Shown piece after piece: positions 33,583-56,416 of a stretch of 64,000 nt of DNA. The stretch comes from Chamaesiphon sp. (GTDB lineage Bacteria; Cyanobacteriota; Cyanobacteriia; Cyanobacteriales; Chamaesiphonaceae): the NCBI GenBank assembly GCA_965246715.1, contig CBDFFH010000022.1:111404-175403 (forward strand), written 5' to 3'. Positions within the stretch are counted from its first letter, which is position 1. Each line of letters opens with the position of its first letter. The translations under genes were made by a program, and so were the position numbers. The notes below the pieces were generated by a model. The model searched no databases. It had not been told where the DNA came from and saw only the letters and a list, made by a program, of their open reading frames with translations.

Positions 33583-33605
33583 GGCGTTGCTGAATTATGG
33601 TATGA
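33583..33605 (+). mobile_element. solitary left end of a type-D MITE (GGCGTTGCTGAAT..GGTATGA)
   Basis: Same end as the complete element at 40145-40326; immediately followed by the IS110 left junction. Confidence 0.65.
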
Positions 33606-33659
33606 ACTGCCCCTTGTATCCCAAAGGAAGGTCAAAGAGTAAAATCTGCGATCGCTTGT

Positions 33660-33835
33660 CAACAGCAAAAGGCAAAGGGAAATTCGGATTGCCCCTAGGG
33701 ACACTAAGCCCGTTAGTGTAGATCGAATCACCTGAGTCTAGACAGTGGTACCAGTCAAAACTGGACAGTATCAGCGGTCGCCAGCTCGTCGATCGGGTAA
33801 ACCTGCATTTAATAAGGATAGTTTATCGCCACTAA
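33660..33835 (+). ncRNA. putative IS110 bridge RNA
   Basis: Two internal loops. Target loop: attcg-g-ATTGCCCCT-(stem-loop)-GTGTAGA-t-cgaat. Donor loop: aaact-gg-ACAGTATC-(stem-loop)-AATAAGG-at-agttt. Layout and donor guide match the IS621 bridge RNA as I recall it. Ends are approximate. Confidence 0.75.
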
Positions 33836-33874
33836 TTGCGGTTGAAGTGGTTCTTTAGCACACAGAAACTAGAG

Positions 33875-33998
33875 ATGAGTAGTTCAAACCAAGAGTTAGA
33901 TATACTCGGCATCGACATTCGCAAAGCCAAATTTGCGACCAAAATCGCGCTAAGGTCTTCTCAGCGTGCGTTTTGCTCAAGACGACGTAGCTTTGCTC
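33875..33998 (+). pseudogene. N-terminal fragment of an IS110 DEDD recombinase, split by a 49-nt hairpin insertion
   Basis: MSSSNQELDILGIDIRKAKF, then the 33935-33983 insertion, then DVALL. Removing the insertion restores the GIDxxKxKFDVAL motif. Confidence 0.8.
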
Positions 33999-34042
33999 TC
34001 CAGATACTCCCAGCACGTCCAAATCTCGAAACTCCTAAACCA

Positions 34043-34864
34043 ATGCCTACAAACCCAATTGTCACCGCTGCATGGCTTCACGATCGATTATGCGATCCTA
34101 CCGTTGCACTAGCAATCATAGATTGTCGATTTGCACTGGCAGATCCGGATCTCGGGCGACAGCAGTATGCAGCCGCCCACATTCCCGGCGCACACTACAT
34201 GGACTTAAATCGCGATCTGTCTAGTCCCGTCCGCGAACATGGCGGTAGACACCCATTGCCTGACGCTCGGGTCTTCGGGGACAAATTAGCCGCGATCGGG
34301 ATTAACGATCGAACATTAGTTATCGCTTACGATGATTCGCGCTTTGCCTTTGCCGCACGCTTGTGGTGGTTGTTGCGTTATTACGGACACGATCGCGTGG
34401 CGGTATTAGATGGTGGTTATGACAATTGGGCAAAAGCGGGTTATTCGGTGACTGCGGAGCTGCCAGCACCAGCCGAACGCGGCAATTTTCAGCCCCAACC
34501 TCAGCCAGCGCGAATCGTTGATATCGCCGCAGTCAAATCGCTCCTGCATTCATCAGCGCATGTGCTGGTAGACTCCCGGGAACCCGATCGCTATTTAGGT
34601 AACACCGAACCGATCGATCCCCGTGCCGGACATATCCCCAGCGCGGTCAATTATCCCTGGCAAGCTGTTTCTACACCAGATGGATTCGTGTTACCTGTCG
34701 ATCGACACCGCGAGCGGTGGGCGACAATTTCGCCAGATGTGGAACCGATCGTCTATTGCGGTTCGGGCGTGACAGCTTGTGTCAATCTCTTATCGCTAGA
34801 ACTTGCTGGCATCACGCGATCGAAGCTCTATCCTGGGAGTTGGAGTGACTGGTGTTCTTATTAG
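34043..34864 (+). CDS. tandem-rhodanese sulfurtransferase (SseA/MPST-like)
   Basis: HIPGA, GGRHPLP, AARLWWLL, LDGG, GHIPSA, YCGSGVTAC and YPGSWSDW motifs. The ORF-track extension to 33836 is IS-derived. Confidence 0.93.
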   Translation: MPTNPIVTAAWLHDRLCDPTVALAIIDCRFALADPDLGRQQYAAAHIPGAHYMDLNRDLSSPVREHGGRHPLPDARVFGDKLAAIGINDRTLVIAYDDSRFAFAARLWWLLRYYGHDRVAVLDGGYDNWAKAGYSVTAELPAPAERGNFQPQPQPARIVDIAAVKSLLHSSAHVLVDSREPDRYLGNTEPIDPRAGHIPSAVNYPWQAVSTPDGFVLPVDRHRERWATISPDVEPIVYCGSGVTACVNLLSLELAGITRSKLYPGSWSDWCSY

Positions 34865-34868
34865 AGCG

Positions 34869-35050
34869 CCCAAGTTGCTACCTATAAGCAAAGCGGTTAG
34901 AAACCGCTCCTCGGAATGCAAAGTCCGGTTGTTGCCGCTCGCGGCAAAAGCCTGCCTACGCGGACTAACTATCTAGTCCGCGTAGGCGGACTTTGCAGCA
35001 TTAGCCGCGACTTCAGTCGCAGGCATTATATAAGGTAGCAACTTAGGTTA
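34869..35050. mobile_element. MITE type A
   Basis: cccaagttgctacct ... aggtagcaacttaggt around a gtccgcgtaggcggac core. Confidence 0.8.
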
Positions 35051-40144: not shown

Positions 40145-40326
40145 GGCGTTGCTGAATATGGGTATGATTTTTTGTAGGGGTGCTCCTGTCTTGTCGTTTT
40201 TTTATTCGGGGGGAACCCCCGAATAAAAACGCCGCTTGTGGGTACCCTGAATCGATGCGGGGTAAGCACGAGGCATTACCCCTACAAAAATTGTTTGTGC
40301 GTTTCATACATTAATTCAGCAACGCC
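40145..40326. mobile_element. MITE type D with 8-bp target duplication CTCTCTAA; contains a REP-like pair and a 49-nt hairpin insertion
   Basis: ggcgttgctgaat..tatga / tcata..attcagcaacgcc; ctctctaa at 40137-40144 and 40327-40334; internal gtaggggt...acccctac. Confidence 0.85.
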
Positions 40327-54428: not shown

Positions 54429-55100
54429 GTGACTACATCTTATTCTTATCCCTTGAATGAGTCCAATAATCCTTTCAGGTTTCGTACTCGCCGGATCGAG
54501 CAGGATCTGCTGCGGATGGGTGCGCTAGTCGAAGAGTCCTTTCGGATGGCGCATCGATCGCTATTTCAGCGCGATATCGAAATCGTCGATCGCATCCCCT
54601 TACTCGATCGAAAAATCGATCGGTTTTATCACCAAATCGAACTTGAATGTGCCGAACTGATGGCACTCGCTTCCCCTGTCGCGCAGGATTTACGGTTGCT
54701 CAGTGCCTTTATGCAAATGGTGCGAGATCTAGAGCGGATTGGGGACTATGCCAAAGATATCGGAGATATTTCGCTCAAATTGTTTCCCTATGCCGAACAT
54801 CCATGCTTGCCCGCGATCGAGCAGATGTCTCACAATGCCCGAGCGATGCTAGAATCCAGTTTGATTGCCCTCGCCAATCTCGATGGCACTGCTGGCCCAG
54901 TCATTCACAAACTCGACGATAATGTCGATCGGGCATACGATGAAATTTATCAGATTTTAGCCAGTCAGACCGATATTCAAGGCACTGTCGAACCCACAAT
55001 TTTGATGGCGCTCACGATCCGGCACCTGGAACGGATGGCCGATCATGCAACTAATATTGCCTTTCGAGTGACTTTTATCGTCACAGGTAGCCGAACGTAA
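54429..55100 (+). CDS. phoU: phosphate signalling complex protein PhoU (SphU)
   Basis: PVAQDLR, DLERIGDYA and LERMADHATNIA motifs. Confidence 0.95.
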   Translation: MTTSYSYPLNESNNPFRFRTRRIEQDLLRMGALVEESFRMAHRSLFQRDIEIVDRIPLLDRKIDRFYHQIELECAELMALASPVAQDLRLLSAFMQMVRDLERIGDYAKDIGDISLKLFPYAEHPCLPAIEQMSHNARAMLESSLIALANLDGTAGPVIHKLDDNVDRAYDEIYQILASQTDIQGTVEPTILMALTIRHLERMADHATNIAFRVTFIVTGSRT

Positions 55101-55143
55101 GACCTCTGGGCATCGGAGCGGGCTAAGGAATGAGAACTAAATA

Positions 55144-55343
55144 ACGTGAGTCGCTATCTATCAACCCCAGCGGTTAGAAACCGCCGTATCTGCAAGGCAG
55201 ACGCTTCGCGAACGGAGTGCAAAGTCCGGTTGTTGCCGCTCGCGGCAAAAGCCTGCCTTCGCGGACTGAATTTCTTAGTCCGCGAAGGCGGACTTTGCAA
55301 TATTAGCAGCGACTTTAGTCGCAGGCGATCGGTAGGTAGCAAT
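55144..55343. mobile_element. decayed MITE/REP-like repeat with a type-A right end and a 24-nt insertion
   Basis: Same core as 34869 and 56484; aggtagcaa end; insertion at 55189-55212. Confidence 0.7.
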
Positions 55344-55348
55344 TCCTC

Positions 55349-55386
55349 CTTTGGTAGGGGCAATTCATGAATTGCCCCTACCAAAG
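55349..55386. repeat. perfect 38-bp REP-like palindrome
   Basis: ctttggtaggggcaattca-tgaattgcccctaccaaag, with GTAG...CTAC near the ends. Confidence 0.85.
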
Positions 55387-55429
55387 CTTGGGGCGACGGT
55401 AGATCTGCATATTATTAAATCCTTATTCC

Positions 55430-56416
55430 TTAGCCAAGAACTTCGCCCACAGCCAGTCTAGTTCCATTCACTAGATCGGCTCCAGATTGAGGGCGTTTGC
55501 TCGGAAGTTGAACTTCGCGGAGCAGGATACAGCCTGAGCCAGTTTTAACGATCGGCCCTAACCCTTTGGCAATTTTGACAACCGCACCAATTGAGGTATT
55601 ACTTACATCTAGACTATCGATCTCAGACTGAAGTTGCTGAATTTCTGGGGGTAAATCCATAGCGGCGGCTGTCAGCGGTAACGTTGCTAGAATTTTGAGT
55701 GGTTGGGTGCGAAATATCGTCACACAATTGGGGTAAAAGCCCCGAATCCGATCGTGAATAGTCATACTCGATCGCGACCAATCGATCGTATACTCTGATT
55801 TCTGAATCGGTGGTGCGTAGGTAGCCGCTGAATGCTCCTGGGGAATGGGTGTAATCCGATCGAAGTCATCTAGAGTCGCAACTAACAAATCCGCCCCGAT
55901 CGTGGCTAACCTGACTGCCAAAGAATCGGCATTGTCCCACAGGCTAACGGGAGTCTCTGACTTGAGTAACATCGCTCCGGTATCCATGCCTGCATCCATG
56001 AGCATGGTAGTAATACCCGTAGTGTTGACCCCATCGGTTAAACAACGTTGAATGGGCGCGGCTCCACGATACTGTGGTAGGAGCGAGCCATGAACATTGA
56101 TACAAGCCAATCTAGGTAAATCGAGAATTTCTTGAGATAATATCTGTCCGTAGGCAATTACGACAAATACATCGGCGGCGAGCTGACGTAATGCCGCGAT
56201 CGTTTCTGGCGCTTTTTTGATCCGATCGGGTTGGAAAATTGGCAATTGATGAGCTTGGGCAATTTTGGCGATTGGTGATGGGATAACTTGATTTCCCCTC
56301 CCACGCACTTTATCCGGCTGAGTTACCACCCCAACCACCTGAAATTGCGGATTGGCTAAAAGCTGCTCTAGTGTGGGAATAGCAAATTGAGGAGTACCGA
56401 AAAAGACGATTCGCAT
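55430..56416 (-). CDS. fmt: methionyl-tRNA formyltransferase
   Basis: FFGTPQFA, VVTQPD, AYGQIL, NVHGSLLPQYRGAAPI and MDTG motifs. Confidence 0.96.
   Translation of the reverse strand: MRIVFFGTPQFAIPTLEQLLANPQFQVVGVVTQPDKVRGRGNQVIPSPIAKIAQAHQLPIFQPDRIKKAPETIAALRQLAADVFVVIAYGQILSQEILDLPRLACINVHGSLLPQYRGAAPIQRCLTDGVNTTGITTMLMDAGMDTGAMLLKSETPVSLWDNADSLAVRLATIGADLLVATLDDFDRITPIPQEHSAATYAPPIQKSEYTIDWSRSSMTIHDRIRGFYPNCVTIFRTQPLKILATLPLTAAAMDLPPEIQQLQSEIDSLDVSNTSIGAVVKIAKGLGPIVKTGSGCILLREVQLPSKRPQSGADLVNGTRLAVGEVLG

Follow-up and report, generated by a model that had tools for sequence, protein, structure and literature searches.

A perfect palindrome in the analyzed window (64,000 nts of a Chamaesiphon genome) is very likely an empty member of a GTAG-tagged repeat family, named REP-A here, that holds every copy found of an IS621-type IS110 element and is likely chosen by bridge-RNA pairing. 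With equally high confidence, the element itself can be regarded as a new cyanobacterial member of the IS621 kind. This assignment rests on several observations: copies are inserted at the CT core in the arm of the repeat, the guide equals the flank, donor ends are shared, the recombinase gene is intact, and guide and flank covary among relatives. Since REP targeting by IS110 elements is already known from IS621 and ISPpu10, the mechanism itself is not new; what is added is a natural series of re-aimed guides and breakpoint hot spots at guide-encoding DNA. The features are listed in Table 1.

Table 1. Features of the window discussed in the text (window coordinates; a dot marks features without strand)
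Feature	Position	Strand	Remarks
Left target flank of the remnant	33606..33614	+	one base off the repeat arm; intact in the orthologue L169
IS110 remnant	33615..33935	+	left end, bridge-RNA region and first 20 codons; ~84% identical to full-length copies
Left target guide	33688..33696	+	followed by AG
Right target guide (GTAG tetranucleotide) and two handshake bases	33718..33723	+	placed by analogy with IS621 (layout in the accessible text of PMC11208158)
Left donor guide	33765..33772	+	copies the element's right end minus the final T of the core
Right donor guide	33807..33816	+	altered in the remnant by one substitution and one extra base (alignment)
5' stub of the recombinase gene	33875..33935	+	holds the first catalytic aspartate codon
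Small hairpin repeat, ~49 nt	33935..33983	+	at the truncation point; related copies in the genome
Composite repeat with terminal inverted arms	40145..40326	.	empty form of the repeat type occupied on contig C43
Wobble-variant target	40275..40285	+	A at position 4; variant accepted at 3/7 genome junctions
phoU	54429..55100	+	TIGR02135 above cut-off
Composite repeat, 315 bp	55121..55435	.	contains the palindrome plus another nested hairpin repeat
REP-A palindrome, 38 bp	55349..55386	.	perfect, unoccupied, GTAG-tagged, REP-like; between convergent phoU and fmt
Second 11-nt target	55354..55364	-	opposite arm; same sub-family and flanks occupied in G474 (L071, L073)
11-nt target	55371..55381	+	9-nt left target with the CT core at its end, then AC
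fmt (methionyl-tRNA formyltransferase)	55430..56416	-	TIGR00460 above cut-off

The palindrome and its repeat family

The original prediction held that the palindrome carries the bridge-RNA target on both strands, which proved correct: its two 19-nt arms (55349-55367 and 55368-55386) are 100% complementary, and the 11-nt target is exact on each strand. The hairpin has a z score of -5.86, a value reached in none of 200 shuffles. Two GTAG-tagged arms face each other to form one perfect palindrome, and REP-A matches the GTAG-REPs in being a short, multi-copy, inverted repeat that bears the GTAG tag. The composite repeat around it ends in inverted arms of 24 nt (55121-55144 and 55412-55435), and related flanks recur in the genome. 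When up to one mismatch was allowed, six matches to the 11-nt target were found in the window (shuffle mean 1.31; none of 100 shuffles reached six), one of which is the remnant's own guide DNA (33688-33698). The variant said to be tolerated by G-T wobble is also present, one base to the left of its estimated position.

The genome (6.1 Mb in 55 contigs) is rich in the cyanobacterial octamer HIP1. A genome-wide count, proposed as a check of the original prediction, revealed that the repeat is abundant: the exact target occurs 76 + 39 = 115 times on both strands, compared with 4.6 + 4.7 (~9.3) expected under an order-5 Markov model. Most of the listed target sites, read by eye, are arms of this palindrome or of versions with small hairpin inserts in the centre. 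Perfect 28-bp palindromes number 20 in this genome and zero in a reversed-pattern control. Within the genus, 24 of 26 genomes contain this 28-bp core, as do 1 of 10 in the sister genus and 4 of 24 that are more distantly related.

Hairpin elements of about 47-49 nt, which have their first and last bases in common, were observed at many target sites of the genome (and at L072, L179 and L193). They are inserted at the palindrome centre, inside one another and at the truncation point of the remnant, and their 3' end resembles part of the right end of the IS.

The IS110 element and its insertion sites

The remnant begins at 33615, directly after CT, and aligns through 33935. Its flank was said to resemble the repeat arm, and 33601-33614 indeed differs from it by a single base, inside the 9-nt target. 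An orthologous remnant in G474 (L169) has this base intact and a changed guide; thus, the difference in the window is most likely later decay, and the insertion is older than the split and has decayed since. The window copy is dead, its gene being truncated and its right donor guide altered. An open frame (33836-34864) passes from the IS stub into a sulfurtransferase gene, so that 20 recombinase codons are in frame with the latter, whose true start is probably a later methionine.

Four full-length copies with an open, 330-codon gene were identified on contigs C22, C43, C47 and C15. All seven left junctions in this genome adjoin a repeat arm (three exactly, three with a wobble at position 4, and the window copy with its single change), and all four full-length copies, for which both junctions were read, end in CT followed by AC. 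The expectation that homologous copies lie inside the repeat was therefore borne out. Rejoining the flanks restores the palindrome at C47 and C15, and at C43 gives the composite repeat that is seen empty at 40145-40326. The two flanks of the C22 copy come from different repeat types, indicating either a rearrangement or a misassembly. In two of the four full-length copies, base 3 of the element is changed, a position that belongs to both the right donor and the predicted junction promoter.

The recombinase matches PF01548 (98.9 bits) and NF033542 (242 bits; cut-off 140), and its PDB matches are ISCro4 and IS621 only (E = 5.5e-76 and 6.8e-73). In an alignment of seven sequences, D14, E65, D107, D110 and S246-G247 are invariant, which are the catalytic positions named in the available text of PMC11208158. 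The protein combines a RuvC-like DEDD domain with a C-terminal serine domain, insertion occurs at a CT core, and the ends form left donor-CT-right donor, as is typical of the IS621 type. Assignment to the IS1111 group (seekRNA type), for which sub-terminal inverted repeats and an RNA in the right end were taken as the criterion, was rejected: the right end is about 20 bp long and the guides lie upstream of the gene.

By analogy with IS621, the element would leave as a circle, whose joined ends would make a promoter from which the bridge RNA would be transcribed; the left guide would then pair with the repeat arm and the right guide with the GTAG tag, and the recombinase would exchange strands at CT. 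When the ends are joined on paper, a -35 box (5/6), a 17-nt spacer and a -10 box (4/6) make up a predicted junction promoter, and a promoter scan of the linear element gave two sites, which is the chance level. No circle junction was found in the assembly or among the contig joints of four runs, in which contigs show presence only.

Several unusual copies were also observed. One full-length copy has, between its two bridge-RNA loops, an inserted repeat of about 210 bp with a short duplication (contig C43, 136210-136419). On contig C15 (204600-207370), copies of both IS110 families of this genome are arranged back to back at a distance of 140 bp, each occupying its own repeat type, and divergent IS110 pairs resembling this one were found in G761 (L020-L023). 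A 108-bp miniature that retains 33 bp from the left end and about 75 bp from the right is common to two species (L189 on contig C54, 20147-20247, and L193 in G474) and also occurs in runs X1 and X2; in its right flank, AC is preceded by four additional target-like bases. At L043 (G390:C1), a right end leads into a few left-end bases and then CT-AC, which is a complete chromosomal donor junction. In L054 (G555:C1), the stretch ahead of the recombinase gene, with the left end and the target loop in it, is inverted relative to the gene.

Predicted bridge RNA

Alignment and pair counts suggest a two-loop bridge RNA with four guides in the left end of the element. Among ten aligned left ends, the 9-nt guide column shifts with the flank, and the right guide and the donor guides are nearly fixed. 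The four predicted stems are 94% paired with eight two-sided changes, a result reached in none of 500 shuffles; as the structure was drawn from the alignment itself, the slide control is lenient. The free fold is weak (z of -1.94 for a full copy and -0.61 for the remnant), an Rfam scan of the left end gave no match, and short contigs of metatranscriptome run X20 (0.10 share) cover part of the left end, which is no evidence of expression. Because the left target guide is followed by AG, the guide DNA itself matches 10 of the 11 target bases. A reading of these two bases as the handshake guide was rejected on the layout given in the accessible part of PMC11208158.

According to the parts of these sources available, IS621 and ISCro4 (PMC11208160, PMC11208158; PDB 8wt6, 9t56) likewise combine DEDD and serine recombinase domains with a left-end bridge RNA and a CT core, and have a 9-nt left and a 4-nt right target guide with G-T wobble at guide position 4. 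In Escherichia coli, 144 of 173 IS621 sites lie in REPs, the right guide corresponding to the GTAG tag of the REP, where insertion occurs (available text of PMC11208160). Unlike IS621, the present element has a cyanobacterial host, other repeat families, and a scaffold that stays nearly unchanged with at least 13 left guides; moreover, its left guide is followed by AG, compared with TG in the IS621 construct (accessible part of the PMC11208160 supplement). This guide is absent from the target-loop bins in the searchable parts of that supplement, where bins with similar 3' ends are present. Recombination of one-sided donor matches, as described in the accessible text of two studies of half-match recombination and IS110 expansion (bioRxiv 2026.08.31.748434; 2026.08.14.744561), would be a further likeness, and the same text contains no description of recombination at guide-encoding DNA. 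One of the two, in its accessible text, considers target immunity dispensable because insertion destroys the target; in contrast, the present element carries a near-perfect target inside itself.

Insertion of IS elements into REPs has been established for ISPa11, ISRm19 and others (available passages of PMC1525189), and ISPpu10 (bioRxiv 2026.03.19.712850, accessible text) resembles our element in its specific insertion into a REP family of its host. These elements and ISPpu9 belong to other phyla, and a need for the target hairpin is shown for ISPpu10 in the same text. ISPpu9 is reportedly another IS element that targets REPs. Our search of openly available full texts returned no report of a cyanobacterial REP-targeting IS110 element or of guide-DNA recombination.

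Covariation of guide and flank

For the close relatives of our element (clade A), we collected 67 distinct left ends, which were anchored on the element start and an RNA stem independently of the flank; copies with an identical 30-nt flank were counted once. After four decayed variants had been merged, the left ends fell into 13 guide classes. With one vote per class, guide and flank agree at 5.88 of seven variable bases, compared with 3.9 in 20,000 permutations (p ~5e-5), the 67 close-clade relatives being non-independent samples. Across guide positions 1 to 9, the flank matches in 50, 49, 61, 57, 67, 64, 63, 66 and 66 of the 67 left ends; the requirement is strict at positions 5-9, intermediate at 3-4 and loose at 1-2. 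AC forms the right flank in 30 of 30 cases. An inverted partner arm lies near 29 of the 67 sites (control 2), a share that is low partly because many right flanks are missing.

In G623, guide position 4 is A, and the same A is found at three of its four junctions; the A-variant repeat makes up 38 of 101 copies there vs 8 of 71 in this genome. An association of the A-variant guide with a higher share of A-variant repeats is suggestive; this concerns one genome only, and G641 is a counter-case, with 26 of 62 repeats of the A variant and no A-variant-guide element found. Thus, the proposed covariation of guide and repeat was recovered, down to a single base in G623. Two parts of the original prediction have to be adjusted. 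Flanks do follow the guide, as the proposed 11-nt match implies, with the first two to three guide bases loosely enforced; and the lineage is aimed at GTAG-tagged REP-like repeats, of which it uses several families by re-aiming and not one alone. Altering one to seven left-guide bases would re-aim the element to another repeat family, and a change of the left guide alone would suffice because the right guide reads the GTAG tag common to all these repeats. Guide-target covariation across IS110 elements also underlies PMC11208160, as its accessible text describes.

The genome also contains a second IS110 family (329 aa, 56% identical), with the same donor ends, a left guide of its own and a GTAG repeat that differs from REP-A. 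All five of its left junctions lie at its own guide sequence (four exact and one wobble). In another genus, 35 of 79 genomes contain this sister family, and its guide is matched exactly by 39 of 41 readable flanks. Left ends of the sister family (L032, L261-L310) vary in length ahead of the target loop, between about 180 and 390 bp, owing to tandem short repeats. Named carriers of close relatives include Pseudanabaena and Phormidium records. The best 80 of 461 metagenome loci are mostly distant elements with other targets, with three close-clade members among those listed.

One copy, L030 (G089:C20), matches only one of the seven variable bases of its own guide. It sits at the target of a co-resident element, a repeat present in 12 empty copies, and its own target is not enriched; L340 (G767) and L370 and L371 (G771) likewise lie at the target of a co-resident guide. 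Three cases, L030, L340 and L370, suggest that shared donor ends would let the RNA of one element insert the circle of another. Bulged pairing could also account for L030.

These data add cyanobacteria to the hosts in which IS621-type recombinases target REPs. A single scaffold that bears 13 guides, with its sites of insertion mapped, forms a natural series that is useful for the design of bridge editors, and the recombinases are candidate bridge-editor enzymes from cyanobacterial hosts.

Breaks at guide-encoding DNA

Among the 67 left ends of clade A, 59 are normal past the guide, seven end exactly at the CT of the target guide, and one ends three bases later. A set of 68 truncated and nine very short rows was reduced to 28 clade A truncations by removing 44 and five rows, respectively, as sister-family or unrelated; the rows were sorted into clades by hand, and the 28 include two orthologous pairs. 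Seven of these 28 truncations end at the CT of the target guide, one base of about 1260, and they come from seven genomes and five guide classes; this hot spot was noticed after the fact. At three of them (L196, L172 and L353 in G676, G692 and G767), a host AC flank follows the break. The sequence after the break at L196 is the exact other half of the palindrome, and the G767 stub is located on a 4.9-Mb contig. At L370 (G771), a second left end follows the break with one extra T, at a contig end. At L176, L315 and L348, two to six bases after the break resemble the element start, and the L176 (G474) junction is also found in contigs of run X2, possibly from the same source.

The sister family, in which the guide is followed by TA, shows a different distribution. 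None of its 53 sites is cut at the target guide, and three of 16 truncations lie exactly at the CT of the donor guide, joined to AC. The sister donor-guide DNA holds the full left donor plus CT; the clade A donor guide forms a 9-bp repeat with the right end, has no core, and coincides with none of the 28 breaks. The split between the families (7/0 vs 0/3 for target-guide and donor-guide breaks) has p = 0.008. When clean host rejoinings alone are compared (3/67 vs 0/53), the families are not separated (p = 0.25).

We lean towards an extension, which replaces nothing in the bridge-RNA pairing described above, in which guide-encoding DNA is itself a substrate of the element's own recombinase whenever a CT core is present. 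The target-guide DNA, with its 10/11 match, would be joined to the right junction or to an incoming copy, and what is left would be a stub of about 70-85 bp with a fresh perfect target at its end; donor-guide DNA would take that role in the sister family. The stubs are most simply explained if guide DNA recombined with the right junction, or if the element inserted into itself and was then excised. The accessible text on IS621, for which donor half-matches suffice (bioRxiv 2026.08.31.748434), and the excision geometry in the available part of PMC13626964 fit this account, as do both hot spots and the split between the families. Against it, the clean host rejoinings amount to only three events, the hot spot was spotted post hoc with hand-sorted clades, and the reciprocal junction (right end to inner stem) had no exact match in the fetched loci, this genome or five searched genomes. 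A search for the stub pattern in 401 genomes of the order gave no new stub, with four unrelated matches and one doubtful match set aside.

Host slippage or template switching is a serious competitor for the origin of the stubs, at somewhat less than even chances. Such events could use the 10 bp that donor-guide DNA shares with the right end, and the 9-10 bp that target-guide DNA has in common with the left flank or with an empty allele on a sister chromosome. Many cyanobacteria are polyploid, in line with this reading. Deletions between short repeats are common in these elements, giving three 8-bp stubs and a 33-bp miniature (L220, L222, L224, L214), and the donor-guide breaks of the sister family sit in a 10-bp direct repeat. 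However, the target guide and the right junction share only 3 bp in cis, the guide and left flank of L370 share only 5 bp, and the 9-bp donor repeat of clade A has attracted no break.

The recombinase as the agent of these breaks would have several consequences. These RNA-guided systems would then handle their own guide gene imperfectly, copies would have one route to die or become miniatures, and engineered cassettes would hold a built-in off-target whose strength is set by two bases. As the guide is a DNA copy of the substrate, the recombinase would be expected to act on its own guide gene. Whether bridge-RNA elements are autoimmune, recombining at their own guide gene wherever it carries a CT core and thereby gutting the element, is in our opinion an even bet. 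If they are, a stub would be either a fresh perfect target (from the target guide) or a two-ended miniature (from the donor guide), and the bases at or after the 3' end of the guide would be selected as a mark of self and non-self, like a CRISPR PAM. Co-resident elements with one shared donor would in that case lend guides to each other, which would ease re-aiming among REP families.

Target choice and origin of the repeat

It is improbable that the protein reads the repeat hairpin or the GTAG tag and that the guide match is secondary. ISPpu10 does require a target stem-loop besides pairing (bioRxiv 2026.03.19.712850, accessible text), and the distal guide bases are loose. However, flanks track the guide class even at positions 1-4 (3.07 of 4 vs 1.59), and copies were found at arms whose partner has been displaced by nested inserts and at exact matches that are not palindromic (L177, L219, L344). 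A chance match, or a repeat that is merely the element's footprint, can practically be dismissed, given the excess of target sites over expectation, the junction census, the presence of the repeat in nearly all genomes of the genus when the element's left end is found in 6 of 26, and the repeats that flank Y1 transposase genes. Bridge-RNA pairing with an arm of the repeat therefore remains the preferred reading.

For a RAYT gene flanked by the repeat, which the original prediction proposed to look for, a RAYT-like candidate exists in a relative and none was found here. In G698 (L395), a Y1 transposase gene has two REP-A palindromes upstream and one downstream, and in G693 (L393), one palindrome lies beside such a gene; these are two of nine loci scanned, out of 16 returned. 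Both genes score below the NF047646 cut-off of 80 bits (63 and 61 bits), and their motifs agree with subclass 2.4 as tabulated in PMC6006769, as far as that source was available. None of six Y1 matches in this genome is flanked by REP-A. Because REP-A flanks Y1 genes, it behaves as a REP with its own transposase, the IS being a tenant. REP-associated tyrosine transposases and larger composite repeats, rather than the IS, probably account for the spread of the repeats.

GTAG-tagged REPs are known from cyanobacteria (families 12, 15 and 16 in the available text of PMC3733652). REP-A resembles the GTAG REPs and REPtrons described in the accessible passages of PMC3733652 and PMC6006769 in having GTAG at the foot of inverted arms and in flanking a Y1/HUH gene with subclass-2.4-like motifs. 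In these passages, IS110 is not mentioned in PMC3733652 and appears once, in an unrelated context, in PMC6006769.

On contig C34 (103856-104650, L014), a REP-transposase-like gene (76.9 bits; cut-off 80) is flanked by the repeat of the sister family. Its upstream repeat holds a decayed left end of the sister IS110; thus, the IS has struck the source locus of the repeat itself. Other Y1 genes (L012, L013, L015, L016 and L017) are flanked by other palindrome families, some of which are also present in the window (34890-35030 and 55145-55330).
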